This document shows positions 2,333 to 56,894 of a stretch of DNA of 57,958 nt, piece by piece. Numbering within the stretch: the first letter of the stretch is position 1; each line of letters begins with the position of its first letter. This DNA comes from a virus. Its lineage: Duplodnaviria > Heunggongvirae > Uroviricota > Caudoviricetes. Position numbers and translations under genes: made by a program. The notes under the pieces were generated by a model that saw only the letters and a program-made list of their open reading frames with translations, was not told the DNA's origin and ran no database searches. The stretch spans positions 1 to 57,958 of IMG/VR virus record IMGVR_UViG_2778261152_000005; one strand, given 5' to 3'.

Positions 2333-2721
2333 TCCTTGCGGCCGGGCGTGGAGAGCGCTTTCTCGCCTCCGGGGGAAATACCCATAAGTGTATCGGCTGG
2401 CGTCAGTCCCCGGAGGTTGCGCCTTATCGCTGGCCATTTGAAGAAAACGGGAGAACTTTCGACCTTGCGATTGAACCGCAGATTACGACTAATGATCTGC
2501 GTCTGATGTTGAGGCTGGCTCTTGCCGGCGGAGGAATAACAATTGCCACTCAGGAAACTTTCAGGCCATATATTGAAAGCGGTAAGCTTGTATCGCTGCT
2601 TGATGACTTTCTTCCACAATTTCCGGGCTTCTATCTGTATTTCCCACAGCGTCGCAATATTGCACCAAAGCTCCGCGCCCTGATTGACTACGTCAAAGAA
2701 TGGCGGCAGCAATTGGCTTAA
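2311..2721 (+). pseudogene. yagP: LysR-family regulator fragment (C-terminal effector domain only, no HTH)
   Basis: ATG at 2311 preceded by AGGAGGAGG; 136-aa product is only the C-terminal part of a LysR-type protein (…LRLMLRLALAGGGITIATQETFRPYIESGKLVSLLDDF…); overlaps paoD stop; same size and position as K-12 yagP from memory. Confidence 0.55.
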
Positions 2722-2837
2722 ATGTCTGCACCTGCACTGCCTGATGTCAGAACAGTATTTTGATGAATTGCCAAGGTTACAATGGCACAAATACGGCACA
2801 GGAGGAAACGTGGTGTATTTAAATATGGGGTAACTCT

Positions 2838-2872
2838 TTGATTTTAATGGTGCCGATAATAGGAGTAAAACA
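2838..2872. repeat. Attachment-site direct repeat, copy 1, containing the last 19 nt of tRNA-Thr (ptwF-like)
   Basis: TGGTGCCGATAATAGGAGT at 2848-2866 is the reverse complement of the tRNA-Thr(CGU) 3' end; with flanks it repeats at 15535-15563. Confidence 0.7.
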
Positions 2873-2921
2873 CTCGATTAATCTCGTGTTAATGCCATCA
2901 CCTACGACCATTACTAATTGA

Positions 2922-4286
2922 TTGAATCTTATAGAAAAATCATCATTTTCTATGCGTCACAATCAATTTTCACATTACAAACGCTCCGACACTTTAGCCG
3001 GAGATTTTATGAGATACAAGCCTAACCAATACTTAATCTGTGATTCTTACGGTAACTACTATTTAAGGATAACGCTGCCTGTGTATATGCAGCCCTTTTT
3101 TGAAGGAAAAAGGACGTTTGTCAGAAGTCTACACACAAGTAATCTTCGTGTTGCACGTAGAAAGCGTGATCAGATTGCAGATGAATACCATTGCTTACGG
3201 GAGAGTGTCGCCCCTGTAAACAGCACAATAGAAAACACGCTGGAACTGTTACGCAGTAAGGCTAAATACGCCAAAACAGCTACCAGAATGCAAGATACAG
3301 CGTCTTCGTGTCCGTCATTGCTTAAAATTCTTGAAATCTACCTGACAATTAACAGCACGAAGAAGAAGCCAGCCACTTTAGCTAAGGCAAGAAAAGCGGT
3401 AGAGATGTTTCTCTCCTACCGTAAAAAGCCTGATATTGCATTGCAAGATGTAAGCCGCACCACTGTTACAGGCTGGATTGAACACATGCAAAAAACCCTT
3501 TCACAACAATCAATTGCAAATTATATCAGCCCAATGGCCCAGCTATGGGAATTAGCTTCATCACGTTACCACGATGCGCCAGAAAGGGCGCTCTCCCCCT
3601 GGCGAGGGCATAGGCTTGATGTGGCACAAAGTAGAGAGAGCTACGAGGCATTTTCTAACAAAGAGCTATTGCAGGTGTTGCAAGTATTTTCCGGTGATTC
3701 AGCAGAAAACAAAGAAATGATGGCTTTGTGTCTTATCGGTGCCTATACAGGTATGCGGATCAATGAGATAGCAAGTCTCACAATAGACGATGTGAAAGAG
3801 ATCGAAGGTGTGCTGTGTTTTGAAATCACACAGGGAAAGACGAAAGCAGCGGCACGTGTTGTGCCTGTACATAGCCTTATCACTCCGTTGGTGTTGTCGC
3901 TGCGTGAAAAGCCTCACAATGGCTTTTTGTTCTATCACGCCAGCATTACAGAGCGTGCTGATGGTAAACGTTCCACGTGGCATACGCAGAGATTTACAAG
4001 AGCTAAACGAAAGGCTTTAGGGGAAAAGGGAACAGAAAGGAAAGTGTTTCATTCTCTGAGACACGGAGTAGCACAGCTTCTTGATCGAAATCAAATTCCA
4101 GAAGACAGGATCGCCCTTCTCCTGGGCCATACACGCGGCAATACAGAAACATTCCGCACATATAGCAAGAATGCAGCTTCTCCAGTAGAGCTTAAAAAAT
4201 ATATTGAGCTTTTACGCTACCCTGAAATAGAGAAAGGCTTATCAATCAATAAAAAATCAAATTTAAGGCGTAAAACAACACTGTAG
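2922..4286 (+). CDS. Tyrosine-type phage integrase
   Basis: ORF begins 55 bp after the att repeat; catalytic-region motifs …HSLRHGVAQLL… and …LLGHTRGNTETFRTYSK…; listed start is TTG at 2922, alternative ATGs at 2952 and 3009 (the latter with a GGAGA Shine-Dalgarno). Confidence 0.85.
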   Translation: MNLIEKSSFSMRHNQFSHYKRSDTLAGDFMRYKPNQYLICDSYGNYYLRITLPVYMQPFFEGKRTFVRSLHTSNLRVARRKRDQIADEYHCLRESVAPVNSTIENTLELLRSKAKYAKTATRMQDTASSCPSLLKILEIYLTINSTKKKPATLAKARKAVEMFLSYRKKPDIALQDVSRTTVTGWIEHMQKTLSQQSIANYISPMAQLWELASSRYHDAPERALSPWRGHRLDVAQSRESYEAFSNKELLQVLQVFSGDSAENKEMMALCLIGAYTGMRINEIASLTIDDVKEIEGVLCFEITQGKTKAAARVVPVHSLITPLVLSLREKPHNGFLFYHASITERADGKRSTWHTQRFTRAKRKALGEKGTERKVFHSLRHGVAQLLDRNQIPEDRIALLLGHTRGNTETFRTYSKNAASPVELKKYIELLRYPEIEKGLSINKKSNLRRKTTL

Positions 4287-4293
4287 ACGTAAT

Positions 4294-4330
4294 AAAGAGG
4301 CTTCAATATAGACTGATGCCTCTTTTATGA
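4294..4330. terminator. Hairpin terminator between convergent genes
   Basis: AAAGAGGC-(16 nt)-GCCTCTTT stem followed by TTTATGA, placed between int (+) and the 225-aa gene (-). Confidence 0.4.
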
Positions 4331-4366
4331 TTATCTCGTTACAGAGCGTTTCATAGGCGTTTAAGG

Positions 4367-5044
4367 CTATTGTTTAAATACTGGCGTTACAACGTCTTGC
4401 CCTGGGCTTTTTTGATTTTTCTGTTCTGTTGTATTTACCTGCATTTTAACCTGTCCCCCTACAGATTTATTTGGTGCTGTTTTTACCGCAATTGCGCTTG
4501 TAGTTGCTTTAGAGACAAGACGGATTTGCTCAAAATCAAGAGTAAACAATAGGCTTTCGCTTGCTTCTTCTGCGTAAGACATGCCAACTAACACAACGTT
4601 GTCATAATTTTTTAACTCAGTGACAAGTAGGAAAGGTTGGCGACTGTCCATCAACTGATTTAGGTATTCAAGCATAAGCATACGTCGATTGCCGTTAATT
4701 CCCGCATTCTTAATCATATCGGGATTGAGCTTCAATACGGTTTCAGAGATACGCCCTTGTAATGTGAACTTGTTATTCCGTATTTGAACATGATCACTAA
4801 CTTCTGATCCTGATTCGACGGCATAGCTTGTAACGTCTGCATTTCGGCTAACTTTCGTCGATTCCACGCTATCAAATGATAATGCCTGGTAGTCATTGTA
4901 AGCAGCATTTGCACCACTGCCGAGGTTAGAGGTAATGATCGCAAAGCCGTTACCCCCTTTAGTTGTTCTACCGTTGCTATCGTTGCTTGTGCTGTTGATT
5001 TTCGCCTCAGTCGGGCGACCAATGGTTAACGGACCCATTGCCAT
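4367..5044 (-). CDS. Hypothetical protein (225 aa)
   Basis: ORF in a co-directional block with 5092-6933; no recognisable motif. Confidence 0.45.
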   Translation of the reverse strand: MAMGPLTIGRPTEAKINSTSNDSNGRTTKGGNGFAIITSNLGSGANAAYNDYQALSFDSVESTKVSRNADVTSYAVESGSEVSDHVQIRNNKFTLQGRISETVLKLNPDMIKNAGINGNRRMLMLEYLNQLMDSRQPFLLVTELKNYDNVVLVGMSYAEEASESLLFTLDFEQIRLVSKATTSAIAVKTAPNKSVGGQVKMQVNTTEQKNQKSPGQDVVTPVFKQ

Positions 5045-5091
5045 AATTTGTAATCCTTATTTAAGGGGGCTAAACCGCCCCACAGTGATGA

Positions 5092-6933
5092 TTAATAGGT
5101 TGACCCGCCTGACATAACACCCAGCGTTAATAGCTTGCTAAACTCAGCGGAAGATGCCTTTGATTTGAAGTCGATAAATTCGCTCAATCGTCCGGTGTCT
5201 GATTCGATAGTTAGCGGCACTTCTGCATTTACTTGTAATTCTGGATTGAAGTTAATAACAGGTGCAAAGGTGTGGGAAGGAGTCTTGATAGCTTGTTGTG
5301 CTGCACTCTGTTTCAGATTTGCAATGTTTTGTCCTTCGAGAGTGTATTGATTTACAGCCTGCGCCCCGCCTACCGTCTCTTCTGGCGTAAACCAGCCTTT
5401 AATAGTGTTAACCAGGGAATTGCTGTTATCTGGCTTAGTTGTTCCGGTGCCAGCGCCTTTATATTGGTTAGGAGTGAGATTAGAAAGATTCTGCTTCATT
5501 CCTTCGTTAGACAGTGGCGGTGCATCACCTAAATTCTTTTGAATAGCAGCCGTCTTCTCGTCGTTTTTCATCAGCCAGTTGATTGCTTTCATTACAGCGT
5601 TAACCAATCCGCCGATAGCCTCGCCTAATTTGGTAAACATTGGCAGCATTGCAACCATGCTCTTTTTAAACTCTTCAATCACTTTCGGATCAAGAGATTT
5701 CATAAAGCCATCAACAAAGGCGATCCCTTGTGAGTCAGAAAGCCCACTAAGTGCATTATTCAGTTCACGGAATTTAATAACGCTTTCCTGTTGTGCCTGC
5801 GTTACCCAGCGCCCTGATTCTCGTTGTTCTCGTGCTGATTGTTCCACTTCTTTAGCGGAGCGTGTCCAGTATTTAGAGGTGAGCATCAAATCATCAGCCA
5901 GATCTTCCAGACGACTACCGATTTGTGCATCTGAATAGCCTTTAGCTACCATTCCCTGAACTGCTTTACTAACCAGACCAGCCGGATTATCAGCAAAGTC
6001 TTTTAGATCCTTTTTAGTTAGGAATCCTTCATTCATTAAAGTATTGATGCCGCTATCGCCGCCCTTCCATTCTCCTTTACCAGTTTTCTTATCAACTACA
6101 TATTCAGCCTCATCATAAGATTTAGTAGCCTTCTCCCGTACATCTTTCATCTGATCGAGATACTTACGTTTACCTTGTTCGCCCATCATTGAATCAACGC
6201 CGTTTTTATAAGCCCATTGTTCAATATTGTTCATCTGGTTAACGTCTACACCGCCCAGCTTCGCACGGCTATACAATTCACCCAGCGTTTCAGCATTCGC
6301 AAAGCTGTTAGTAACAAATTCAGAGGCTTTGCTCATAGCCATATACGTAGCGCCAGCGCCTAAGCCACCCAGCATAACAGCCGCAGCACCGCCGCCAATA
6401 CTCCCGCTACCCTTAACAGGTGCATAGGCTTTAGCGTGAGCGTTACGATTGCCATTAATCTTACGTTGTTGCTGTTGTAGGCGTTTCATTTGGCTATTCA
6501 TACGTGCCAGACTAATAGCTCCTCTTTCATATTGGAGGGCAATTTCTCTAGCCTGTGCAATAGCTTTATATTGTTCCGCTACAGAAAGACGGTGCATTGC
6601 ACTAATGCTTGATCCAACGTCTAAAAGCTTTAATTCTGCCTTCTCTTTGCGTGCTGCCAGGGCTTTTTGTTCTCTTGCAACTACACGTTGAGCGGCTAAT
6701 TGTGCTTTAGCATTAGCTTTATCAGCCTGTGCTTGCTTTTTAGCAATATCGTCTACGTCTTTTTTTGCTTTAGCGGTTGATTGTTTATGTGTCTTAACAC
6801 GCAATTCTATATCTTTCACCGCCGCCATTTGTTTACGAAGTTTTTCTACTTCTGCTTTTGCTTTCTCTAATGATGGTCGGTTAACTTCGAAGGTGACAAC
6901 GTTCGAGAGGCGTGCCACGTTTAGCTCTAACAT
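5092..6933 (-). CDS. Coiled-coil protein with central Gly/Ala-rich hydrophobic segment, tape-measure-like (613 aa)
   Basis: N-terminal Lys/Ala/Gln-rich coiled-coil region, then …GSGSIGGGAAAVMLGGLGAGATYMAM…; function not established. Confidence 0.5.
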   Translation of the reverse strand: MLELNVARLSNVVTFEVNRPSLEKAKAEVEKLRKQMAAVKDIELRVKTHKQSTAKAKKDVDDIAKKQAQADKANAKAQLAAQRVVAREQKALAARKEKAELKLLDVGSSISAMHRLSVAEQYKAIAQAREIALQYERGAISLARMNSQMKRLQQQQRKINGNRNAHAKAYAPVKGSGSIGGGAAAVMLGGLGAGATYMAMSKASEFVTNSFANAETLGELYSRAKLGGVDVNQMNNIEQWAYKNGVDSMMGEQGKRKYLDQMKDVREKATKSYDEAEYVVDKKTGKGEWKGGDSGINTLMNEGFLTKKDLKDFADNPAGLVSKAVQGMVAKGYSDAQIGSRLEDLADDLMLTSKYWTRSAKEVEQSAREQRESGRWVTQAQQESVIKFRELNNALSGLSDSQGIAFVDGFMKSLDPKVIEEFKKSMVAMLPMFTKLGEAIGGLVNAVMKAINWLMKNDEKTAAIQKNLGDAPPLSNEGMKQNLSNLTPNQYKGAGTGTTKPDNSNSLVNTIKGWFTPEETVGGAQAVNQYTLEGQNIANLKQSAAQQAIKTPSHTFAPVINFNPELQVNAEVPLTIESDTGRLSEFIDFKSKASSAEFSKLLTLGVMSGGSTY

Positions 6934-6967
6934 GCTAATTGTTTCCCTGTATTATGATTGTTGTTTG

Positions 6968-7165
6968 TTATTGTTTTTTAGAGCAATAATATTGGATTGC
7001 TTCGAAAGTGCTACATCCAGTCTGAAAGACACGCTGACGCACATTATTTGCATCAATTGAAAGCATTCTGCATAAGGCACTGACATTGATTATTGAGTCA
7101 TCGCTAATAGCTGCCAGTTCTTTTACAGATTTAAGAATTAATGCCTGTGAATTTTCTGTATTCAT
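6968..7165 (-). CDS. Hypothetical small protein (65 aa)
   Basis: ORF between two larger co-directional genes. Confidence 0.3.
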   Translation of the reverse strand: MNTENSQALILKSVKELAAISDDSIINVSALCRMLSIDANNVRQRVFQTGCSTFEAIQYYCSKKQ

Positions 7166-7318
7166 TGGTTTTCTCTCACATATATATTTTTATTTGGGTT
7201 TGTAGACAGTAGAAAAACAAAAAGGGCAAAGAGATTCGTTACTGTATTTGCGCCTACAGGTTAGTTAATCCCTTTACCATTATTTTCCAGACGATGGGAA
7301 TCGTCTATTAATGCTTTA

Positions 7319-8350
7319 TTACGCAGCAGATCCGAAGATGATAGCTTGCGGAATGTTGTTTACTGGCAGATAAGATGTCTCAGTAACCACAGATGGGAAT
7401 TGGAATTCATCCTTGATTAGATATTGGTGATGCAACACGGCATCTTGACCTAACTCAGCATGACGCACACCAACGCCGCTATGAAGCTGGTAACACTGTG
7501 CCGCTTTATCCATTACCGGGACAATTGCGAAACCGTTCTCTCCGATGTGAGCAACAATCTCAGGAAACATTGACACATCAATAACAGTGATCCCACCAAT
7601 CTGGAAAGAGTCATAGGCTGGGTTAGAATCAACCATACGGGTAAACAGGGCCGTAGCACTCGCATCGCCTGCATATTTCACCATGTCACTGATCAGCGGG
7701 TTAGATGACAAACCATCAGCAGCAGCGCCAGCAGCAAAGATAATTACACCAGTTCGCTTTGCAGCAAGACCAGACCCCAGCTTTTCACTCTGTAAGCGCA
7801 CCGCTTTACGAATAGCAAGGAACGGGTTAACAGTAGTCGATGCAAAGTCGATAGCGGGTACCGTGGTTTTAGCCTGACCGTCGAGGAAGTCGAGATCACC
7901 TTGTCCGGCATATTCAGATTCAACTTTCAGTCCCAGCAGCGCGGTAATCAGATCCACTTCAACACGGTTTGCGTGTGAACGGTAATGAGCCTCAGAGAAA
8001 TCATTAACCGCTACCAGCATAGCATCAGAACGGTTTGGATATTGGCGGCTGTATTGTTCCAGGTCACGAGAAGTAACAGCGTTAATACTGCCGACGTGTT
8101 TCATCTGGAAAAGTTTGTTTGACCATTCCTGACGTTTAGAAGCGTTCCAGTTGCTTTGAGTGTAAGGCGAGGTTTCCCCGGCTACCTGCACAAACTGCTC
8201 AATCAGGTCGGTAAGAAGAATGCTGTTTTCTGTATGATATTGCACATCGAACAGATCGAGATTAGTAATCAGGGTATTAAGTGCATTCTCATAAGCAAAT
8301 GGAGTTACTACCGCAGTATTAACGCCAAAATATGTTGATAAATCATTCAT
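7319..8350 (-). CDS. Hypothetical protein (343 aa), possibly structural
   Basis: Long ORF with no NTPase motif; co-oriented with 8365-8748; capsid-like role is a guess. Confidence 0.5.
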   Translation of the reverse strand: MNDLSTYFGVNTAVVTPFAYENALNTLITNLDLFDVQYHTENSILLTDLIEQFVQVAGETSPYTQSNWNASKRQEWSNKLFQMKHVGSINAVTSRDLEQYSRQYPNRSDAMLVAVNDFSEAHYRSHANRVEVDLITALLGLKVESEYAGQGDLDFLDGQAKTTVPAIDFASTTVNPFLAIRKAVRLQSEKLGSGLAAKRTGVIIFAAGAAADGLSSNPLISDMVKYAGDASATALFTRMVDSNPAYDSFQIGGITVIDVSMFPEIVAHIGENGFAIVPVMDKAAQCYQLHSGVGVRHAELGQDAVLHHQYLIKDEFQFPSVVTETSYLPVNNIPQAIIFGSAA

Positions 8351-8364
8351 TATTATTTTCCTTG

Positions 8365-8748
8365 TTAAGTCGTAGGGATCGCAAGTTCTTCATAACCAGC
8401 AATTACAAAGCCGAGAGATTGCAGTTTTGCAATAACACTTGCCTTTTCCATGCTGTTAAATTCAATCCCATCTTCAGCCAGAATAACGAAAGTAGGATGT
8501 GCAACCACTACGCTTTCCTGTCCTTCATAAGCCGGTTCAACTACTACGTGAGCAATATCAGAAGCGGTTGTTGCTTTGGTGCCATCGGCTTTCAGCAAAG
8601 CCCCGACAATAAGATCGTCAGTGAGAGGTGAAGCCAGTTTGACGAGGCGATCTTGCAGCACTGGATCAGCAGCGTAAGCTACTACCTTACAGCGTGAACG
8701 GGAGTTATCCGCATTCACTGCTTTTAATTTTCCATATGGGTTAGCCAT
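8365..8748 (-). CDS. Hypothetical protein (127 aa)
   Basis: ORF ending 15 bp before the 343-aa gene start, same strand; AT-rich probable promoter region upstream. Confidence 0.45.
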   Translation of the reverse strand: MANPYGKLKAVNADNSRSRCKVVAYAADPVLQDRLVKLASPLTDDLIVGALLKADGTKATTASDIAHVVVEPAYEGQESVVVAHPTFVILAEDGIEFNSMEKASVIAKLQSLGFVIAGYEELAIPTT

Positions 8749-9945
8749 AAGATTATTTTCCTTTCAGTTGTTTAATTTTAGATTTAAGGGCATCAGCAAG
8801 ACTAACCGCATCAGCCGATTTAAATAATTGAGCAGTGGTAGAACGAAGACTTTCGGGAGTAACTCACAACAGTGCGGCAACCTTAATGAGGTTTTCATCA
8901 CTAACAATCATCGTTTCCCCGTCTTTGCTGATAATCATTTCTTGTTTCATAAATAACGTTCCTGTTAGTGCCAGACAAATAAAAAGCCCCAATGCCGTAA
9001 GAGGTTAATTCTGACCAGCAAAGGGGCTTTAACGTGCGGGCAATTACATAATTGATAAGTTAAACTATAAGAGGATTAAACATATCAGCAAATACACTTT
9101 TTAAATATACTTGATGATATGCTTAAAGAGTGAATATCAGACCTTAGAAAGGAAGGCTCTTAGGAGTTTGCCACTGGAATCACTAAGATCTGATATTCTG
9201 GGTGCGGGGGGCTAACCGCTGCCTGTTTTTGCTGTGGATGCAACAAAGTAAGGCTGTAAGGAATCACTATTCCAATTCTCATCTACTCACAGATCAAATT
9301 TTAATAGGATTAACTACACCAACAGTAATCTACCGTTTCAGAAAATCGTTTTTACAACCAAAGCTTATAGATCCGCATTCTATAAAACCCGTTTTGCTAT
9401 CAATATTTCCAAAGGTTATTGCACAATTCTTAGCTAAACTCTCTCTGCTTGCGGCTAACGCTATGCAGATGATTGTTTTTGACAACAACTTAATAGATTA
9501 TTCTGTTACTAACTTCTGTCATTAAATAAGAGTTTAATGATGTTAGTAAATAGTTATAAAATATAACTATCAGTGTAAGGCTCTTTAATGTTTTCGGACA
9601 AAATAAGGAGCTTTAGGATAAGCATAGATGAAAAATAAGAGCGGGAAGGGCAAGGAGATAACACCTACCCACCTTTATCAAAATTAAGCACAATGCCTAA
9701 CAACATTCATCAACACAACGTAGAAACAATCAACAATCAAAGAGGGAGTTATGATTATTCTAAAACTTCTTGAGAGATGGAAGGTAATATTTGTTAGAGG
9801 TTAATGCCACTCAACCCTTGAGGCTATCACCTTCCATATGCAGGGATTTATGACAATAGAAGGATTAACGCCAACTAAAATCTTTTTATCTATCCCTAAA
9901 ATTATTATATAACAAAATCATTATAAATGCAAATGATTTTCATTA

Positions 9946-10257
9946 TCATTTAGAGAAAATAGCACTTTTTGCTAAATCATCTACTAATTGCTGAATCTCT
10001 TCACTTGTAGCCTTTAACGTGCGGGCGGTGTCTGTGATAGTTCGAGTGCACAGCTTGGCATCGTCCTCAGATAGCTGCTCTAAATCGCTCACCAGAGAGA
10101 TAAAATCGTCAAGGCTTACATTCACCTTCATTAAGCTAATTACGCATTGAGAGAGCGTGTAATCGCATAAATCTGAATAGGCTTGATTGATACGTGTCTG
10201 TAGGGTGATCATCCGATCCGAAAGAGTGTCCATAACTTCCAGAATGTTGTCTGTCAT
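9946..10257 (-). CDS. Hypothetical acidic protein (103 aa)
   Basis: Start overlaps the stop of the upstream ORF (10254-10257); AT-rich. Confidence 0.4.
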   Translation of the reverse strand: MTDNILEVMDTLSDRMITLQTRINQAYSDLCDYTLSQCVISLMKVNVSLDDFISLVSDLEQLSEDDAKLCTRTITDTARTLKATSEEIQQLVDDLAKSAIFSK

Positions 10258-10484
10258 TGTGCAATCTCTCCTTGATCTGCTGATTCCATCTCTTGCTGAA
10301 TCTGTTTATCCTTGTTTAGTGCAATCTGTAGTGGTATACGATAGGTTGCAATGTCATCCAGCACATCATCAAGCAAGGCAAAATCATTTTCTTCTTTTGC
10401 TCGTTCAGCCAGTGAAATAAACACTTCTGCAAGTTGTTTTGCTTCTTTAAAAAATGTTGTTTCTAATAGTTGATAGTTAATCAT
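10254..10484 (-). CDS. Hypothetical protein (76 aa)
   Basis: Overlaps the next gene in operon arrangement. Confidence 0.4.
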   Translation of the reverse strand: MINYQLLETTFFKEAKQLAEVFISLAERAKEENDFALLDDVLDDIATYRIPLQIALNKDKQIQQEMESADQGEIAQ

Positions 10485-10542
10485 TATTTTTCCTTTTTCG
10501 AATATTTTTCATTGGGCGCTTATACATACGCCCGTCATTTTA

Positions 10543-10926
10543 TTAGTTAGAACGTTTGTTAGAAGCTAATGTATCTTCTAAATGAGCCATCAGATCGACT
10601 TCCGAAACACCACCTACACAATTATTGAAAGCGTTAAATCCCAAAAAATGATGATAGGAGCTAAACCCTAAAAGCTGCCAACGTTTCAGAGTGCCATCAG
10701 AAATGATAGTTTGTTTTCTTGTTTTTGGGCGAAAGTAAACGCCTGGCATTGATTTGATTATTTCTTGTTCTTCATAGCTTAATTCAGGGGATTCTGTTTC
10801 AAGAATAAATATTATCTCTTCCCCTGGAATTTCGTTATTGGTGTGTGTCGGTGGACGTTGTCTTGTTGAATTGAAGTTACTGTTTTTTTCAATACGTTTT
10901 AAGTTGTTCTTTTTCTTTCTTCCCAT
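10543..10926 (-). CDS. Hypothetical protein with basic N-terminus (127 aa)
   Basis: ORF beginning MGRKKKNNLKRIEK…; no recognised domain. Confidence 0.4.
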   Translation of the reverse strand: MGRKKKNNLKRIEKNSNFNSTRQRPPTHTNNEIPGEEIIFILETESPELSYEEQEIIKSMPGVYFRPKTRKQTIISDGTLKRWQLLGFSSYHHFLGFNAFNNCVGGVSEVDLMAHLEDTLASNKRSN

Positions 10927-11061
10927 TTTCCCTCTTTTTATGTGGATTATAAAAACTTGATGCCATTGTTACAATGAATATCGCCATAAATGCATTTGCC
11001 ATATGTATTGCCCGATCTGTTGTTATTGATTGTTTGTGATGTTATAAATCATTTATTCTCC

Positions 11062-11655
11062 TTAGAATGGTATTGAATCGTATATTTCACTTTTTTCTCT
11101 TAGAGATATTATCAGATCGTGAAAAGCCTGTTTCTCAAGATAGATATTCTTTGAATCTAATGCTCGTTTTACAAAATCTTCTGTTTCTTCGTGCGGTGGT
11201 TTCTTCTTATCAAGGGAAAGAAGCCAAGTAAAAATTTCGGGCCGTTCAGGGAACTCAGGCTCTTGTGTTTCTTCTTCAACGATGATTTCGGAAACATTCA
11301 ATATTTCATTAGATTCGTCTTCTTTCTCAGAAGGATCAGGTAGTGATGATTCTCCTTTTGGAATATCAAGCACTCGATAAAGGTTAGAGCTTCCTGGTCG
11401 TGCATCTTTTATAATTAATCCCATTTCGAGCAATTTCTTAACCCTTTCTTCTGCTGCTCTTGGTGTTATGCCAAAAACATCGCCTATCTTAGCGTAAGAG
11501 GGAAATGCACGATCAAACCCTCTCAAATAGCAGTAAAGGTTTTTAGCACTATCTGTAAATTTATGCCCGTTTACTTGGCTTATTTTTAGAATCCACATAG
11601 GAACTTTTACAAATTGTTCTTCATTAATCATTAAAAATCTCCTTGATGTAATCAC
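11062..11655 (-). CDS. Winged-helix DNA-binding protein, replication-initiator/regulator-like (197 aa)
   Basis: N-terminal …FVKVPMWILK…AKNLYCYLRGF…FPSYAKIGDVFGITPRAAEERVKKLLEMGLI… HTH-like region and acidic C-terminus; lies about 1.3 kb from the iteron array. Confidence 0.5.
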   Translation of the reverse strand: MITSRRFLMINEEQFVKVPMWILKISQVNGHKFTDSAKNLYCYLRGFDRAFPSYAKIGDVFGITPRAAEERVKKLLEMGLIIKDARPGSSNLYRVLDIPKGESSLPDPSEKEDESNEILNVSEIIVEEETQEPEFPERPEIFTWLLSLDKKKPPHEETEDFVKRALDSKNIYLEKQAFHDLIISLREKSEIYDSIPF

Positions 11656-11684
11656 GCTCTACGGCGCTACTATGGTGATAAAAA

Positions 11685-11855
11685 TCACTTGCTTTTGTTT
11701 GAGAGTGTTTCAGCCTCTCTTTTCAACATATCAAGAATGTAATCTGTAACAGTGATACGTTTACTTCTGGCTTCTTTAAACAACACCTGAAATACTTCAT
11801 CAGGAATATGAAAGCAAGTGCGTGGTTGTCTTTTCTTTTCTGTAGTTTCGCTCAT
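11685..11855 (-). CDS. Small ribbon-helix-helix-like DNA-binding protein (56 aa, not in ORF track)
   Basis: ATG at 11855 with AGGAG 9 nt upstream; MSETTEKKRQPRTCFHIPDEVFQVLFKEARSKRITVTDYILDMLKR…. Confidence 0.4.
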   Translation of the reverse strand: MSETTEKKRQPRTCFHIPDEVFQVLFKEARSKRITVTDYILDMLKREAETLSNKSK

Positions 11856-11876
11856 AGTTTTCTCCTTCTCCTGTTA

Positions 11877-12053
11877 TTATTCTTTCTCTGCCTTACGCAG
11901 TTCATCAATAATTTTTAGTGCATCGTCAAAGCATTTTTCACGCTCTGGATAACCACAGCGTCGCGCTGTGTTCCTGTTCATCCTTACTTTAAAACGATTA
12001 ATCTCACCACGTTTCCAGGCTTCAACTACATCTTGAGAAGTGAAATACTTCAC
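11877..12053 (-). CDS. Small hypothetical protein (58 aa, GTG start, not in ORF track)
   Basis: GTG at 12053 with AGGAGG 7 nt upstream; …KYFTSQDVVEAWKRGEINRFKVRMNRNTARRCGYPEREKCFDDALKIIDELRKAEKE. Confidence 0.4.
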   Translation of the reverse strand: MKYFTSQDVVEAWKRGEINRFKVRMNRNTARRCGYPEREKCFDDALKIIDELRKAEKE

Positions 12054-12488
12054 TAATTAACCTCCTATTCTATTTGGTTAAAAGAAAAAACACCTTGCAA
12101 GCCTGACGGCTTCAAAGTGCATTGATTTTAATTATTTAGAGGATGGGAATGTTTTCCTGTCCTAATATTACTTTACCACGACTAAAGGCTTTTGTCAACC
12201 CGTAGTCGTAAAAATATTGATCTTTTTCAGTAAGTTATGATATTGCTTAACAATTCGTGCTCTTTTTCTTCCTTATTGTCTAAAACGCTCTAAAACGCCC
12301 TCTGACGAGGTTTTGATAAATACAATAATTCCCTTATGTAGAGGCTGTTTAGCTCGCCAGAGGCTTGATTTAAGCGGTAGAATCTCATCTACTACCTAAC
12401 ATCTTTAAACCATATTTTTCTTTTTTGTCTGTTTGATGGTTGATCTATAGTTATGCGTTAGCATCCCCAAAGGGGTAACGCTACTCTA

Positions 12489-12869
12489 ATTGCATTCGCC
12501 AGAACATTGCACAAGAAATTTATTTTAGATGATTGATGATCGTTAGATTGGCGTAAGCCTCATCAATGGAACTATTGAAGCGCACAGCGCATAGACACTA
12601 ACAACCATTCGCTTACGCTCAGGTTATTGCACAAGTAAATTTCAATCGTTAGATGGTAGTTAGTTAATTATCGTTCTGCGCACAGCGCAAGACTATTTAG
12701 CCTTACGCAAGCCGTAGGCTATTTGCACATAGTAGATTACATATTCGTTGTGAGCGGCATTAGCGAACATAGATCTACTAACTAACATCAACAAACAAAA
12801 ACTATGTGTTATGACAAGCAGTCTAACGACTAACACTCTAACTTGTGCAAGGTTCTGGCGAATGCCAAT
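12489..12869. repeat. Repeat-rich 381-bp segment bounded by 27-bp inverted repeats
   Basis: ATTGCATTCGCCAGAACATTGCACAAG at 12489-12515 and its near-perfect inverted copy at 12842-12869; interior has two roughly 110-bp tandem units with TCGTTAGAT, GCGCACAGCGCA and TTGCACA motifs. Confidence 0.5.
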
Positions 12870-12981
12870 AGATTAAGGGATAGTCAAGGACTCCCCTAAC
12901 GGGTATCCCTATAATTATTCTTTAAAGATAAAAGAATTTATAAAAGATAATTTAATTGTAGTTTTATAGTTGATCTAATAG

Positions 12982-13118
12982 GTAACAAAATTCTGTAGGG
13001 GTGGCTAACAGTTTTCTGTGGGGGTGTCTAACATAATTCTGTTAGGGTTGGGGTAACAGTTTTCTGTTAGGGTGCATATTTCTTTAAAAGTTAAGGATAA
13101 CAGAATTCTGTGGGGGTA
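12982..13118. promoter_or_regulatory. Iteron array (5 copies of AACAnnwTTCTGTnGGGGT), putative origin or Rep-binding region
   Basis: Four tandem copies at about 23-bp spacing plus one spaced copy, followed by AT-rich DNA. Confidence 0.55.
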
Positions 13119-13671
13119 GTTCACAGTGACCTACCGTTATTACCGATGTGTAATATCGTTACATCCATTTATCACATAACATCTGTGCAATGATCTTCTT
13201 ATAAGTTGTAAAAGTGTTTCTTGCTATCAAAAATTAAACATCTAAAACAGGCTTAAATTCAAGATTAATTGATGATTAATCCCTGTGTAATTCCATACTA
13301 AAAAATTTAATGAAAAGTAGCTTAAAAGAGCAATGTTAGCTTTCTTCACTTTTACATCACTTTCGCAAAGCCTTGTGTAATGCGGCTTACAGAGCACTAT
13401 CAGAAATTGTTGATTAAAAATCAATCTATTATCTGTCGAACAAGTTTTCTTTAATGCAACAAAAAATTAATTTTTTCAAAATAAACACGCTATTTAATAG
13501 CTTGCTAATTTTACCAAAACATAACTACACGATTCTCATGCAAGACGTGTAGTGATAAAGCAGGCTAAATCACCACACTAAAAACCTTCGAATTTCGTAG
13601 TGAAAAAAGTCCTTTACACACCTAATCAACACGATCAATAATCACTACACACAAATCAACACAGAAGGAAA

Positions 13672-14229
13672 ATGAAAATGGCTAATATTGGATACATTAG
13701 GGTATCGACTGTCCAACAAAACACAGACCGTCAATTAGCTGGAGTAACTCTTGATAAAGTCTTTGAAGATAAAGCGTCAGGCAAGAATACCCAGCGCCCA
13801 CAGTTTGAGGCAATGATGAACTATGTGCGTGAAGGTGATGTTTTGCATGTTCACAGCATTGATCGACTTTGCCGTAATACAGCCGACCTACTGGCAACGG
13901 TTGAGCAATTAACAGAGCGCGGCGTGTCTGTGCATTTCCATAAAGAAGACTTTAAGACAGGGAAGAACTCTCCCGCAGGGAATATGATGCTCACAGTGCT
14001 TGCAGCAGTGGCACAAATGGAACGTGAAATGATGCTTGAGCGGCAACGTGAAGGGATCGCCGCAGCTAAGGCCGCTGGACGTATAGCAAAACGTGGTAAT
14101 GGAAAAGCAATTGATCGAGCGGGAATTGTTGCCGCTCTCGCGAATGGTGGATCAATTCGGAGCGTAGCAAAAGATTTCAGTGTCAGCACACAGACGGTGC
14201 AACGTATCAAGAAAGAGCAGGAAGCGTAA
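13672..14229 (+). CDS. Serine recombinase (resolvase/invertase family)
   Basis: N-terminal …GYIRVSTVQQNTDRQ… catalytic-serine motif and C-terminal HTH (…SIRSVAKDFSVSTQTVQRIKK…). Confidence 0.85.
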   Translation: MKMANIGYIRVSTVQQNTDRQLAGVTLDKVFEDKASGKNTQRPQFEAMMNYVREGDVLHVHSIDRLCRNTADLLATVEQLTERGVSVHFHKEDFKTGKNSPAGNMMLTVLAAVAQMEREMMLERQREGIAAAKAAGRIAKRGNGKAIDRAGIVAALANGGSIRSVAKDFSVSTQTVQRIKKEQEA

Positions 14230-14554
14230 TGCCTCCTGATATTTGAGAATTGTCGCTGCGTGGACCTGACGCCGCTGATCTTCGCGTTAAACATTGATCA
14301 CGTCTGCGCCGATTTCAGATAAAAAGGTAGCTATTAAGCAATACGTAACTTTTACAATTAGTGAAATTATCTAAAACACAAGTTATATAGATGAGAAAAT
14401 GAAACATTATCTTGAACAAATCAAACAAAACAACACATCATCTTGTTGACACCATGCAAAGTGAATAGTAAACTATTATATGTGAAAATTTGCATGTTGC
14501 GTGCAATAAAAAATAAATGATACTTTGCTATTGTTAAATCAATAGGGGGTATCT

Positions 14555-14713
14555 ATGCGCTTTATCTCATCCATTTTAAAAACCTGCAGAACCACAATTA
14601 CTTTAGCTGTAATTGTTACCATCATATACCTCATCTATTTTACCCCTCGAGATAAAATCGATTCACTAGCGATCATCGTTCATGCAATGGCTACATTAAC
14701 TAAAAAACTTTAA
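14555..14713 (+). CDS. Small hydrophobic peptide (52 aa, not in ORF track)
   Basis: ATG at 14555 with GGGGG Shine-Dalgarno; MRFISSILKTCRTTITLAVIVTIIYLIYF… predicted single membrane helix. Confidence 0.25.
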   Translation: MRFISSILKTCRTTITLAVIVTIIYLIYFTPRDKIDSLAIIVHAMATLTKKL

Positions 14714-15523
14714 TAATTTCACTATCAGGCGCATAAACACATCTTTGATCGCTGGATGTGTTATGCGCCTACTGGTGATTCAATCCTTAAGCCATTTCAA
14801 CTCACTAAGGAGTTTTCTTTCTTCGTTCTCTCGCTGTTTACGCTCTAGCCAGGCTTTTCCCTCTGGAGTAGACAGGAACTTACGAGCGTGAATCTTGCGG
14901 TTATTACGTTTGATAGCTGCAATGTTTTTCATCGTGTTGCCTCTGTATTCATATGAAAATGAACAAGTTACATACTACACAGGGAGACTACGCATAAAAC
15001 ACAATACAAGTAAAGATACATTTTCAAGACAATAGGAGCCATAAAGCGCCTTTGATGGTTATACCAAAAAATAAGCGCCGTAGGCGTATCCACTAAAAGG
15101 GCTTTTTCACAAAAGCTATGAAGTCTTAGCAGTTCTTCTCTTATCAGGCACCCGTTGTACTCCGGTGGACGAAACCGTGCTAGAGCTTGATTCTTTCCCG
15201 ATCAAGTTAGGTTTTGAAGAGGTGGGCTTTAATCCACTATTGCACTTAAAACTCTTCCCATCATTTAGCCTGTTTATCCTCTGCAACGTCATCTCGACGT
15301 GTAGCATCATTGGACACCGCGCCAGGTGTGGAACATCTTGCTAAGAGTTTTGGTAGAAGGTTTAGAGACGGTGGCACGTCTTCCAGCTTCAAAGGAACTT
15401 GTTACGAGGTTGAGCCTGGGAACTACTCGCCCATACGTGTTACACTACCAAAGCCCATAACAACGTATAGGCGTTTGTAATTGATAACAGAAGATACAAT
15501 TTCTTAGAGAAGTTAAGCTAAGT

Positions 15524-15563
15524 TATTGATTTTCTTAATGGTGCCGATAATAGGAGTAAAACA
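15524..15563. repeat. Attachment-site direct repeat, copy 2 (boundary between elements A and B)
   Basis: TAATGGTGCCGATAATAGGAGTAAAACA shared with 2838-2872; 15539-15557 matches the tRNA-Thr 3' end. Confidence 0.7.
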
Positions 15564-15669
15564 CAGCAAATAACCACATGTATTTACTGTATTTTGTTTT
15601 TTACAAATTAGATAGATACCCGAATTGATACCCGTTTTGATTTCGCTCCCGATTGAGGAACAAAACGGG

Positions 15670-17051: not shown

Positions 17052-18041
17052 ATGAACCGTATTGGCTGGATCTCATTAACTAGAGTAATAGCAGTAACAT
17101 TTATCGTAATGCTGCATTCTGCCTCATTCTATTTCAATAATTTTGATATTGGTGTTTTTGGCTGGGAAGTTGGGAATCTTGGTAATGCGGTTAGTAGATG
17201 GGGGGTTCCAGTTTTCATTATGCTATCAGGGGCTTTATTACTAAATAATAACAATTCGAATGACTACGCCTCTTTTTACAAACGCAGGCTCTCTAAGATA
17301 CTTATACCACTTATTTTCTGGTCTATCTTTTATTCTGCGATATGGCTTTTCCAGAATAAAGGTGACGCCACTATTTACGAAGCTTTAATAAATATTATAA
17401 GTGGACATCCGTTCTATCATATGTGGTTTATGTATATGATTCTTGGACTATACGCATTTACACCTTTGTTCAGGAAAATTGCATCTGTAATAGAAGATAA
17501 AGAAGCAACTTACTTAATCACCACTGTATTTATGCTTTCTGCCGTATGGATAAGTAATAAATACATAGCTGATGCTCATGATCCATTGTGGTTTTTCTGG
17601 TTCATTCAATACATTCCGTATTATTTTGCGGGGTATTATATTTCAAAATCATCTAGAAACATAAAGCCGACTCTTCTATTAATTGTAACGATTATAACCG
17701 TAGCAGCCACTTTTATAGCCACACATTACGCCTCGGTACAGTTTGGTAAGACTCAATACTTCTACGAACCGTTATCCCCTTTCATTATTATAATGTCATT
17801 GTGTGTATTTTGTTTATTCAAAAGGTGGAATTCAGGATTCTCCGACTCTCTCGCAAATTTAAGTTTAGGTGTTTATTTAATTCACCCTTTCTTTTTGCTG
17901 GCCTTCTTTAAGGTGTTTAAGGGGTTTGCAATGTCGTGGCCTCTTATGGGTTTTATTTGTGCGTGGATTATTTGCACAGTACTGTCTTTTGCTTCGACCT
18001 TCATTATCAAAAAAGTTAAATATTTAAATGTGATAGTGTAG
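17052..18041 (+). CDS. Acyltransferase family 3 membrane protein (O-antigen acetylase-like)
   Basis: 329 aa, multiple hydrophobic segments, N-terminal …RVIAVTFIVMLHS… typical of Oac/OafA-type acyltransferases; opposite strand to flanking phage genes. Confidence 0.75.
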   Translation: MNRIGWISLTRVIAVTFIVMLHSASFYFNNFDIGVFGWEVGNLGNAVSRWGVPVFIMLSGALLLNNNNSNDYASFYKRRLSKILIPLIFWSIFYSAIWLFQNKGDATIYEALINIISGHPFYHMWFMYMILGLYAFTPLFRKIASVIEDKEATYLITTVFMLSAVWISNKYIADAHDPLWFFWFIQYIPYYFAGYYISKSSRNIKPTLLLIVTIITVAATFIATHYASVQFGKTQYFYEPLSPFIIIMSLCVFCLFKRWNSGFSDSLANLSLGVYLIHPFFLLAFFKVFKGFAMSWPLMGFICAWIICTVLSFASTFIIKKVKYLNVIV

Positions 18042-49202: not shown

Positions 49203-49387
49203 CACCGGTTATCTCTGACACTGACCTGATTAACATCAAAGAGGTTGAGCGCTCTGTTGGCCTGAAAAAATCCAGCATTTATGAGCGCATCAGTAATAAC
49301 GAGTTTCCGAAGCCTAAGAAGCTCGGGAGCCGAACCTCCCGCTGGGTACGCGGCGAGGTCGAAGAGTGGAAAAAACAGTTTCTTTAA
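49199..49387 (+). CDS. AlpA-family transcriptional regulator / excisionase
   Basis: 62 aa, …LINIKEVERSVGLKKSSIYERISNNEFPKPKKLGSRTSRWVRGEVEEW…; convergent with the integrase. Confidence 0.7.
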   Translation: MTPVISDTDLINIKEVERSVGLKKSSIYERISNNEFPKPKKLGSRTSRWVRGEVEEWKKQFL

Positions 49388-50646
49388 ATCAAACGAAGCT
49401 GGTCAATATAATCCGCATACCACTGCATCATTTCCCGACGCCCTTCCATATACAGGGCATGGTTATAAACCCCGCGTATATTGTTCTTGTCCACGTGGGC
49501 GATCTGGAGTTCAACCCAGTCAGAGTTGAATCCTTTATCGTTCAGGATAGTGCTGAACGTATGCCGGAAGCCATGCCCTACTACCCTCCCCTTATACCCC
49601 AGCGTGTGGATCATCCTGTTTATTGTGTTCTCGCTCATGACCTTTGACGGGTCATTCCTGCCGGGGAACATATTCACGTATCGACCTGTCAGCCCGTGCA
49701 GTTCTTTTAGCAAGACGACAAGCTGATCGGAAAGAGGTACCAGGTGCGGGCGGTCCATCTTCATAAATTCGGCGGGTATCTCCCACAGCCGATTATCGAA
49801 ATCTACCCATTCCCATTTTGAATGCCGCAGTTCGTAAGTACGCAGCCCCGCCAGCATCATGATCTGCAACCCCAGCCGGGGCAGCGGGCTCCCCTTGTAA
49901 CTCTCAAGCGCCGCGAGAAAATCAGGCAGTTCCTCCGCCGTCAGGAACGGGAAGGACTCTCCTTTATGCCCGGTCATTGCGCTATTCAGTTCGCTGACGG
50001 GGTTATACTTCGCGCGCCCAGTCGCAACTGCATAGCTGAATACTTCACCGCACCACCGGCGCGTTTTGGCTGCTTTCTCGGTTGCGCCGCGATTCTCAAT
50101 TTTGCGCAGTGCCCTCAGCATCTGGACAGGCTCGATTTCAGCAACTGGCAGCTTACCCACCGCTGGGAAAATATCTTTGTTGAATGCTTCGAGAATGTCA
50201 GAGGCATAGCCAGGCGACCAGCGCGGCTTCTTGAATTCATGCCATTCTATCGCGATCTCTTTTAACGTGATCGTCTTTACTGCCGCAGCTGCGGCATGGC
50301 TTTTGACTTTTACCGGGTCAACACCTGCCGCAACGTTACGCCGGGCCTCGTCGCGTTTTTCGCGAGCGGCCGCCAGCGAAACAGCCGGGTATACCCCGAG
50401 CGCCAGCATCTTTTCTTTACCGGCGAAAGTATAGCGATAGCGCCAGTATTTTGCCCCGCTGGTTTTCACCAGCAGGATAAGCCCGTTGCCGTCTGGCAGC
50501 TTATAGTCTTTCTCGGCAGGCTTTGCCGTCTCGACCTGTCGCGCGTTTAGTTTCATAGGTACCCGCCTCAAACTCAGATACCCGATTATGTACCCGTTTT
50601 TAATTTGGATTGCAACGGCAAAAGGTGGATTATGGCGGACAAACAA
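49384..50646 (-). CDS. P4-type tyrosine integrase
   Basis: 420 aa; N-terminal arm-binding pattern (…LPDGNGLILLVKTSGAKYWRYRYTFAGKEKMLALGVYP…) and C-terminal …GHGFRHTFST…; next to the tRNA-Thr 3' fragment. Confidence 0.85.
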   Translation of the reverse strand: MFVRHNPPFAVAIQIKNGYIIGYLSLRRVPMKLNARQVETAKPAEKDYKLPDGNGLILLVKTSGAKYWRYRYTFAGKEKMLALGVYPAVSLAAAREKRDEARRNVAAGVDPVKVKSHAAAAAVKTITLKEIAIEWHEFKKPRWSPGYASDILEAFNKDIFPAVGKLPVAEIEPVQMLRALRKIENRGATEKAAKTRRWCGEVFSYAVATGRAKYNPVSELNSAMTGHKGESFPFLTAEELPDFLAALESYKGSPLPRLGLQIMMLAGLRTYELRHSKWEWVDFDNRLWEIPAEFMKMDRPHLVPLSDQLVVLLKELHGLTGRYVNMFPGRNDPSKVMSENTINRMIHTLGYKGRVVGHGFRHTFSTILNDKGFNSDWVELQIAHVDKNNIRGVYNHALYMEGRREMMQWYADYIDQLRLI

Positions 50647-50709: not shown

Positions 50710-50755
50710 TGGTGCCGATAATAGGAGTCGAACCTACGACCTTCGCATTACGAAT
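50710..50755 (-). other. tRNA-Thr(CGU) 3' fragment (46 nt, anticodon loop to CCA), attachment core, not an intact tRNA
   Basis: Reverse complement ATTCGTAATGCGAAGGTCGTAGGTTCGACTCCTATTATCGGCACCA matches the 3' part of thrW from memory; the expected 5' D-arm half is absent. Confidence 0.75.
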
Positions 50756-50975
50756 TATAAGAATCCGCTTCTAATTCAAAGCATTACCCCATCAACACTG
50801 CGCTCACACGTCCCACCACATCAAAACATGTAAAGCCTTGCAAGCCATTGTGAGGCCTTATGTGTCTCAGTTTTGTCCCACTACGACCTGCACAGAAAAT
50901 AAGAAAATAGCGGTGATATCAAACAGTACAGAAGTCTTTTTTCTTTCAAATGGAGAAACTGATTAACCCGTTTAA

Positions 50976-51149
50976 TTGTACTCCTCATGGGCAATCAGCA
51001 GTCCTCAGAGTAATGGAATGGCAGAAAGGTTCGTGAAAACGATGAAGGAAGACTACATCGCGTTCATGCCGAAACCGAATGTAAGAACGGCATTGCATAA
51101 TCTTGCAGTGGCGATCGAACATTACAATGAAAACCATCCGCACAGTGCG
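50976..51149 (+). pseudogene. IS3-family (IS2-like) transposase C-terminal remnant, cut by IS1
   Basis: …[51 protein letters not shown] parallels the IS2 OrfB C-terminus from memory; the frame runs straight into the IS1 left end. Confidence 0.6.
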
Positions 51150-51204
51150 GGTAATGCTGCCAACTTACTGATTTAGTGTATGATGGTGATTTTAAGGTGC
51201 TTGC

Positions 51205-51480
51205 GTGGCTTCCATTTCCATCAGATGTCCTTCCTGCTCCGCTACTGAAGGCGTGGTGCGTAACGGCAAAAGCACTGCCGGACATCAGCGCTATCTCTGC
51301 TCTCATTGCCGTAAAACATGGCAACTACAGTTCACTTACACCGCCTCTCAGCCCGGTAAGCACCAGAAAATCATTGATATGGCCATGAATGGCGTCGGAT
51401 GTCGCGCCAGTGCACGCATTATGGGCGTTGGCCTCAACACGGTTTTACGTCACTTAAAAAACTCAGGCCGCAGTCGGTAA
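51205..51480 (+). CDS. insA: IS1 InsA
   Basis: 91 aa, [43 protein letters not shown]…; A6C slippery site near its 3' end. Confidence 0.9.
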
Positions 51481-56884: not shown

Positions 56885-56894
56885 TTCCGTTTAA

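Follow-up and report, generated by a model that had tools for sequence, protein, structure and literature searches.

A tRNA-Thr-associated element of a published family of putative Escherichia coli satellites, its kinship with virulent Stephanstirmvirinae phages and a candidate packaging site

The DNA analysed here (the window) is the 57,958-nucleotide viral record IMGVR_UViG_2778261152_000005, of which positions 2844-15564 are occupied by element A, an island of 12.7 kb inserted at the 3' end of a tRNA-Thr gene (thrW). Judged from its sequence, element A is a discrete, conserved, att-flanked unit with its own integrase and an iteron/initiator replicon, and its predicted products include diverged homologues of four virion proteins of large virulent phages, namely the capsid protein, a probable decoration protein, the tape-measure protein (TMP) and a Dit-like hub protein. 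We consider it probable, at roughly 70%, that element A leads a satellite lifestyle resembling that of the PLE elements and exploits virulent Stephanstirmvirinae, i.e. phAPEC8-like Phapecoctavirus phages of ~150 kb, called the helper below.

Element A almost certainly belongs to the family of 224 putative E. coli satellites that Barth, Dunham and Seed predicted from sequence in 2023 (PMC10055350; PMC10448857). Because both the family and its interpretation as satellites are published, element A is a rediscovery. An earlier note, made from the letters of the window alone, had proposed a phage satellite, an integrative plasmid-like element or a new kind of island; our analysis supports the first of these but not the last, the type being already present in Table S6 of that work (PMC10448857). 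The portions of Barth et al. consulted contain neither the copy of a phage terminal-repeat block described below nor relatives from Klebsiella, Citrobacter, Cronobacter, Enterobacter and Pluralibacter, and the same holds for the signs of purifying selection, the nonsense mutation of this copy and the array of three elements in tandem.

Results

Membership in the published family

The published satellites are described as att-flanked elements of ~13 kb with a tyrosine integrase next to a tRNA, which code for capsid and decoration proteins, a putative TMP and a baseplate component, lack terminase, protease, alpA, adaptors and Pri-Rep, and in a subset carry a serine recombinase (PMC10448857). Element A agrees with this description in each feature that could be compared, save that its decoration protein is only probable. 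The two copies of its att repeat are 12,691 bp apart, in E. coli EC195 the same type of element adjoins an intact tRNA-Thr, and a tyrosine recombinase gene lies next to one att site. There is a gene for a major capsid protein (MCP), and there are genes for a TMP and a baseplate component without the rest of a tail. No match to prohead protease, alpA, head-tail adaptors or Pri-Rep was obtained in Pfam, PHROG or NCBIfam with the main open reading frames (ORFs) of at least 50 aa, and none to terminase, portal, ATPase, protease, sheath or tube proteins in the scanned ORFs of the element; the earlier remark that no terminase, portal or ATPase is visible thus holds for every ORF scanned. As for the decoration protein, its gene stands beside the MCP gene as in the helper, with weak profile matches. 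The replication initiator shares DNA with a phage RepA_N-T5orf172 nuclease gene and itself has no nuclease domain, and this copy of element A is of the replicon type matched by phage Mt1B1_P17. In Table S6, GGTGCCGATAATAGGAG occurs 136 times, the att strings listed match window positions 2835-2880, and the entries with the att/arm sequence of the window include E. coli O104:H4 2011C-3493 (PMC10448857).

Structural genes and their phage relatives

Five consecutive genes of 225, 613, 65, 343 and 127 aa, reported in the earlier note as a block of unrecognised, possibly structural proteins, are indeed present at the positions given there. The block is not unrecognised, since four of its genes have detectable homology. 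The structural reading stands for the Dit-like protein, the TMP and the MCP, is only probable for the 127-aa decoration protein and finds no counterpart in the 65-aa gene, for which neither Pfam nor PHROG gave a family match.

The tail proteins point to a single group of phages. Among 50,697 phage records, the sole relatives of the 613-aa TMP are the TMPs of Stephanstirmvirinae, myoviruses of 145-151 kb; it aligns with the 662-aa TMP of the Phapecoctavirus Mt1B1_P17 starting at residue 1, and for the TMP of a sister satellite the alignment covers the full length (E 3e-42), the two termini being conserved and the coiled-coil region shortened. The Dit-like protein is 53% identical to the tail protein of phAPEC8-like Phapecoctavirus (e.g. 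QNJ49307.1 of Mt1B1_P17). The kinship of the 343- and 127-aa proteins to phage proteins is visible only through profiles or pairwise comparisons, and tblastn searches of phage genomes with these two proteins returned no match. Compared pairwise, the 343-aa MCP and that of the helper are 24% identical (E 1e-4); homologues of the former carry the name 'major capsid protein E', with Pfam Phage_cap_E matching 10 of the 14 family members. The structure prediction that had been proposed as a check yielded a low-confidence model of the 343-aa protein, with which Foldseek retrieved HK97-fold capsids only, including the PLE-hijacked capsid of ICP1 and lambda gpE. The 127-aa protein forms one family across all satellites, and the corresponding gene has been labelled 'Dec' (PMC10055350). 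Gene order in element A mirrors the Dec-MCP and TMP-Dit pairs of the helper.

Replicon and phage nuclease sharing the initiator domain

Both the winged-helix Rep-like protein and the iteron array noticed at the outset were confirmed. The initiator, called RepA_N in the literature for this type of satellite (PMC10448857, PMC10055350), has an N-terminal winged-helix domain and no nuclease domain. Across family members the iterons co-vary with the initiator (Rep) type, while their period of 22-23 nt is kept. The five iterons of element A are directly followed by one unit of the type used by a different satellite replicon (that of locus L011), probably left by an exchange of replicon modules. The non-coding origin region, which lies between the iterons and the leftward operon, contains a 394-bp segment with repeated GCGCACAGCGCA and TTGCACAAG motifs. 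We considered whether this segment, which is bracketed by inverted repeats, is an invertible switch and rejected the idea, as the flipped form was found in none of 353 genomes; for the same reason the serine recombinase of the element is more likely to be a resolvase than an invertase.

Over 355 bp at the initiator gene (11318-11672), the DNA of the window and that of the virulent Phapecoctavirus Mt1B1_P17 are 99.2% identical. The phage gene encodes QNJ49226.1, an early protein of 328 aa whose residues 1-105 match the N-terminus of the initiator of element A at 104 of 105 positions and are followed by a second winged-helix domain and a C-terminal MUG113/GIY-YIG nuclease domain, the latter related to putative homing endonucleases of T5-like phages. 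Barth, Dunham and Seed started from the same three phage nucleases (PMC10448857). In our searches, the chimeric nuclease gene was found only in Mt1B1_P17, BI-EHEC, muut and inny; phAPEC8 and ESCO13 are among the Phapecoctavirus isolates without it. Its product is built like Odn of phage ICP1, a protein that pairs a GIY-YIG/T5orf172-type nuclease with a copy of the DNA-binding domain of the PLE initiator and that cleaves the iterons of the PLE origin (PMC8263062). By analogy, we infer that the Mt1B1_P17 nuclease may be an Odn-like anti-satellite protein aimed at the iterons of elements such as this one.

A copy of a phage terminal-repeat boundary

A block of ~80 nt (14233-14315), located directly after the serine recombinase gene, matches more than 60 Phapecoctavirus genomes at ~81% identity; no such relationship exists for its flanks. 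In these phages its counterpart spans the inner boundary of the direct terminal repeat (~310-330 bp). Three phage records from different laboratories have an exact end duplication of 309-329 bp, with 9-18 nt between the end of the core of the block and the inner edge of the duplication, and the start position is shared by many independent records, including phi92, VEcB, PHB05, W22, Schickermooser and 118_SA_NWU; for the relative BME3, a direct terminal repeat of 342 bp was determined by PhageTerm (PMC12210895). The block is the sole part of the terminal region of the helper to be mirrored in element A, the outer boundary of the helper repeat not being mirrored. It was found in 256 of 5,426 E. 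coli genomes, always directly downstream of a small serine recombinase gene. Its folding as a single strand is not significant (z 0.48).

It is tempting to speculate that the terminase-less satellites are packaged through this ~80-bp stretch, which reproduces the inner boundary of the helper repeat, and that the recombinase may work with the site; we regard this as a tentative proposal, with the odds somewhat against it. The recombinase may serve as a specificity factor for the helper terminase, or it may resolve replicated multimers. The portions of PMC10448857 and PMC10055350 consulted contain no discussion of packaging signals for these elements, and the block is the one part of our finding that looks new and directly testable.

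Insertion site and tandem array

Element A is bounded by two exact copies of the 30-nt direct repeat TTAATGGTGCCGATAATAGGAGTAAAACAC. The earlier description of direct repeats that include the 3' end of tRNA-Thr was correct in substance: the 19-nt core of the repeat is present three times in the window (2848, 15539 and 50710) and was not matched in any of 100 shuffles; it corresponds exactly to the final 19 nt of tRNA-Thr (thrW) as annotated in E. coli EC195. Its length had to be amended from 29 to 30 nt, and the window itself contains no tRNA gene according to ARAGORN and Rfam, the latter of which gave no other RNA family either. Both copies of the 30-nt repeat lie outside any intact tRNA. The core copy at 50710 retains 46 nt of the tRNA before the sequences diverge. 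Three elements are therefore stacked at thrW, with element A outermost and the intact tRNA beyond the right end of the window. The array consists of element A, prophage B (15565-50709) and a third element that starts at 50729, all at one att site. On the left, element A is flanked by paoC-paoD-yagP', as in E. coli, and its guanine-cytosine (GC) content of 34-45% differs from the ~60% of this flank. In EC195, an element of the same type sits alone between yagP' and the intact tRNA-Thr.

Prophage B carries genes for a DNA polymerase, a primase-helicase, internal virion proteins, a head-tail adaptor, a large terminase, a tailspike and a phage lysozyme. Its integrase gene is at 49384-50646, and a gene next to the att site (17052-18041) codes for an acyltransferase (Acyl_transf_3) that may modify the O-antigen. 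The third element (50729-57958) has a low GC content (39-50%) and codes for a protein of 1182 aa (52231-55779) whose sole match is phrog_18693 (5e-119), a PHROG of unknown function.

Distribution, selection and relatives

At least 80% of element A is present at ~96% identity in 113 of 5,426 complete E. coli genomes, and only one of the 914 matching places is on a plasmid. Of the complete E. coli genomes, ~2-5% contain a member of the family, among them those of outbreak strains such as O104:H4. Ratios of nonsynonymous to synonymous substitution rates (dN/dS) of 0.08-0.31 for the integrase, Dit-like, TMP, 65-aa, MCP and recombinase genes (~0-0.08 for the recombinase) indicate purifying selection. 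Diverged members of the family were identified at tRNA-Gly and in Klebsiella pneumoniae and K. oxytoca, and further homologues of the capsid protein in Citrobacter, Cronobacter, Enterobacter and Pluralibacter. The conserved core of the family comprises proteins of ~70 and ~125 aa, the capsid protein, a protein of ~65 aa, the TMP and the integrase. The family is mosaic, with one member combining a 99%-identical integrase with a capsid protein that is just 19% identical.

The K. pneumoniae islands (loci L004-L006, ~2700-14400) combine the core of capsid and tape-measure genes with an integrase of 402 aa; they have no Dit-like gene, and an ORF of 186 aa with a Phage_integrase domain lies at their other end. 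They are inserted between genes for a LysM/M23 peptidase and an MFS transporter rather than at thrW. The TMP of these islands matches the same 134 phage records as that of element A, so that the whole family points to the Stephanstirmvirinae group. Some Phapecoctavirus-like records are labelled as Campylobacter, Acinetobacter or Pseudomonas phages (e.g. MG065650, B15; OP562383, ABPW7); B15 has ~97% DNA identity to coliphage Phapecoctavirus at these loci, and the host labels may be wrong.

Recombinases and small genes

The features of element A are collected in Table 1. The tyrosine integrase and the serine recombinase recognised in the earlier reading were both confirmed by Pfam, the latter as a resolvase-type enzyme. 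The integrase is 99% identical to WP_001269633.1 of EC195, and its gene is 136 bp from attL; its start is the ATG used in the EC195 annotation, the mechanically defined ORF starting at TTG 2922. The serine recombinase is 100% identical to that of EC195 and has an intact catalytic-serine motif, YIRVST.

Immediately upstream of the decoration gene is a conserved gene of 65 aa that was overlooked in the earlier note because of an in-frame stop in this copy. It is intact in EC195 (WP_000807036.1) and was present in every family member inspected, with counterparts of 69-73 aa in Klebsiella and others; this copy of element A may be impaired by the mutation. By reading of the sequence, a hairpin followed by a T-run stands just upstream of the gene, which the terminator scan did not list. 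The promoter/terminator scan found fewer consensus sites than in shuffled sequences and was uninformative. An AT-rich non-coding spacer of ~1 kb (8951-9945), whose length varies widely across the family, separates the structural operon from the replication and regulation genes. Among the small genes on the far side of it, those of 103, 76 and 127 aa had no significant family or defence match, and the PADLOC scan of ten small ORFs of element A gave nothing significant. To judge from its sequence, the 56-aa protein, one of the two encoded at the start of the leftward operon, resembles a ribbon-helix-helix regulator. A gene of 89 aa found in the EC195 element is missing from this copy.

Table 1. 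Features of element A, with positions in the window
Feature	Position	Strand	Remarks
attL	2844..2873		exact 30-nt repeat; core 2848-2866 = 3' end of tRNA-Thr (thrW)
Tyrosine integrase, 425 aa	3009..4286	+	Pfam Phage_integrase 3e-17, DUF6538, SAM-like domains, phrog_1
Dit-like tail-tube initiator/baseplate hub protein, 225 aa	4367..5044	-	Pfam Dit_like 1.4e-27
TMP homologue, 613 aa	5092..6933	-	phrog_16051 8e-31
Conserved 65-aa gene between MCP and TMP	6968..7165	-	dN/dS 0.19; in every family member inspected
MCP, 343 aa, HK97/lambda-gpE type	7319..8350	-	phrog_29 3.4e-5 (weak)
Probable head decoration protein, 127 aa	8365..8748	-	just upstream of MCP, like the decoration gene of the helper
Conserved 65-aa gene, broken here	8753..8950	-	Gly29 to stop (codon 29, in frame, at ~8866)
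Three small genes, 103/76/127 aa	9946..10926	-	variable among family members
Replication initiator, 189 aa from ATG 11631	11062..11631	-	HTH_36; phrog_270 (replication initiation) 1e-8
Two small genes, 56 and 58 aa, head of leftward operon	11685..12053	-	100% and 97% identical to EC195
394-bp segment in non-coding origin region	12482..12875		bracketed by 34-nt inverted repeats, 88% complementary
Iteron array, presumed origin	12980..13118		five ~23-nt units, TAACAGnnTTCTGTnGGGGT
Single unit of other iteron type	13117..13139		TAGTTCACAGTGACCTACC...; directly after the five own iterons
Small serine recombinase, resolvase/invertase type, 185 aa	13672..14229	+	Pfam Resolvase 1.1e-38
~80-nt block, candidate packaging site	14233..14315		core GAATTGTCGCTGCGTGGACCTGACG at 14247-14271; directly after serine recombinase gene
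Two small ORFs	14555..14932	+ and -	52 aa, hydrophobic (+); 50 aa (-), annotated in EC195 and L011
attR	15535..15564		second exact 30-nt copy; abuts prophage B, not a tRNA body

Discussion

The lifestyle that we propose for element A would run as follows. The element would be silent at thrW until infection by the helper, upon which the integrase would excise it and the initiator would fire the iteron origin, using replication proteins of the host or of the helper. The capsid and decoration proteins of the satellite, together with the portal, protease and scaffold of the helper, might then build a small head, of about T=3-4 for 12.7 kb according to a rough volume scaling from the ~150-kb head. 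The tape measure and hub of the satellite would initiate tail assembly, with tube, sheath and baseplate parts supplied by the helper, whose terminase would recognise the 14233-14315 block and package the satellite DNA. This diversion of helper parts would protect the bacterial population, and phages such as Mt1B1_P17 would counter it with their Odn-like nuclease aimed at the iterons.

Several points weigh against this proposal. In the literature that we found, the excision, replication, packaging and interference of these elements have had no experimental follow-up, the only paper being bioinformatic. No free contig of ~13 kb was found in IMG/VR, where the nine loci retrieved with the capsid profile are all inside contigs of 20-53 kb. 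The model of the 343-aa capsid protein has a predicted local distance difference test score (pLDDT) of 51 and a predicted template modelling score of 0.53, and at this low confidence the fold matches serve as support only. The decoration signals of the 127-aa protein (phrog_2680, phrog_4146 and the PDB decoration protein 9ncf_J) are weak, its profile aligns with that of the helper decoration protein with an hhalign probability of 1%, and its AlphaFold model is unusable (pLDDT 46). This copy of the element has a nonsense codon in a conserved gene. As for the terminal-repeat block, it is conserved no better than its flanks among the more distant Justusliebigvirus phages, and hence could be a recombination scar or the own site of the recombinase; it was not found in the Klebsiella islands, and the terminal duplications in the deposited phage records could be assembly overlaps or artefacts. 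Nor does the proposal account for the need of a satellite for its own tape measure and hub.

Alternatively, element A might be a mobile anti-phage defence island that is not packaged, spreads by other routes and uses its diverged capsid, TMP and hub proteins as poison subunits against the assembly of phAPEC8-like phages. Defences that interfere with assembly are documented. The missing terminase, small-terminase and portal genes and the lack of free element contigs in viral datasets agree with such an island, and the Odn-like nuclease is evidence of harm to the phage but not of transduction of the element. We nevertheless find the idea unlikely, given that a complete capsid and decoration pair under purifying selection exceeds the needs of a decoy, that the element contains a copy of the terminal-repeat boundary of the helper, and that no known defence family was matched by the ten small ORFs scanned. 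The occurrence of the same module at different tRNA sites and in several genera also speaks against it, as this implies efficient horizontal transfer. An element that merely replicates and integrates like a plasmid, with the phage-like genes as passenger cargo without a role in transfer, would account for the iteron/initiator replicon and the resolvase-type recombinase, both of which are found on plasmids. This is quite improbable in view of the single matching place on a plasmid, of ORF scans of element A that revealed no conjugation or mobilisation genes, and of structural genes that form the conserved core of the family across genera while it is the replicon that is swapped.

A satellite lifestyle at the expense of Stephanstirmvirinae also has to be weighed against two explanations that start from ordinary prophages. 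The earlier note had pointed to a decayed prophage in case the block proved homologous to ordinary tail genes, and homologous to phage head and tail genes it is. The island would then be a remnant of a once-complete temperate phage, with leftover structural genes beside an integrase and a nonsense mutation as a sign of decay. Decay is contradicted, however, by the persistence of the same ~12.7-kb gene set in 113 genomes, by the diverged versions at other tRNAs and in other genera and by the dN/dS values; moreover, the homologous phages are virulent 150-kb myoviruses rather than temperate ones, and the replicon, with its iterons and winged-helix initiator, is plasmid-like. A prophage remnant is thus very improbable. 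As for prophage B, which the earlier note had implied as helper by proposing its induction, it adjoins element A in the tandem array at the same att site, and AAAACAC follows the core at the start of both attP arms. Being a T7-like temperate podovirus without tape measure, tube or sheath, prophage B is not a credible helper for an element whose structural homologies, those of a contractile-tailed phage, all point to Stephanstirmvirinae; EC195 and many other strains, in addition, carry the element without prophage B. Of all the explanations considered, we give this one next to no weight.

The resemblance of element A to PLE of Vibrio cholerae is one of architecture and presumed lifestyle. PLE is likewise a chromosomal island that exploits a virulent myovirus, as element A is proposed to do. 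In both, a RepA_N-type initiator is paired with an iteron origin, replicon modules can be swapped, and phages have a counter-nuclease derived from the initiator domain of the satellite. PLE integrates by means of a large serine recombinase, whereas the integrase of element A is a tyrosine recombinase and its serine recombinase is a 185-aa enzyme of the resolvase/invertase type. PLE also reshapes the capsid protein of ICP1 with an external scaffold; element A differs in encoding its own capsid, probable decoration, tape-measure and hub proteins.

P4-like satellites are ~11-13 kb long, integrate next to tRNA genes with a tyrosine integrase and have a small capsid for a small genome. Element A is alike in size and insertion and, presumably, in having a small capsid. 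P4 makes its capsid from the capsid protein of the helper and the external scaffold Sid, and has a primase-helicase replicon; the defining genes of the group are the Sid/Psu/Delta capsid-size and regulatory genes and the alpha primase-helicase. Unlike P4, element A has no PHROG or Pfam match to Sid/Psu/Delta or to the alpha primase-helicase in its ORFs, and its proposed helper is virulent, whereas that of P4 is temperate. Capsid-forming PICIs (cfPICIs) resemble element A in that the satellite encodes an HK97-fold capsid protein instead of merely remodelling that of the helper. They have terminase, prohead protease, head-tail adaptors, alpA and Pri-Rep genes and take only tails from temperate helpers (PMC10055350). 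In contrast, the small terminase, protease, portal/adaptor, alpA and Pri-Rep genes of cfPICIs were not detected in element A, which has tail genes (TMP, Dit-like) that cfPICIs lack.

To our knowledge, satellites of virulent phages are well studied only in V. cholerae, with PLE and ICP1. If our interpretation is correct, the family to which element A belongs would provide a three-way conflict like that of PLE and ICP1 in a tractable host, E. coli. Unusually, the satellite in this conflict would contribute capsid, tape-measure and baseplate-hub genes of its own and not just remodel the proteins of the helper. The phages apparently targeted are among those isolated as candidates for therapy, and the element may therefore affect how well such phages work. 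The family is under-studied, and the terminal-repeat block adds one new testable detail to it. If the block proves to be a packaging site, it would represent mimicry of a packaging signal, a mechanism undescribed for this satellite family, in what would be a tractable E. coli counterpart of the Vibrio PLE-ICP1 system.

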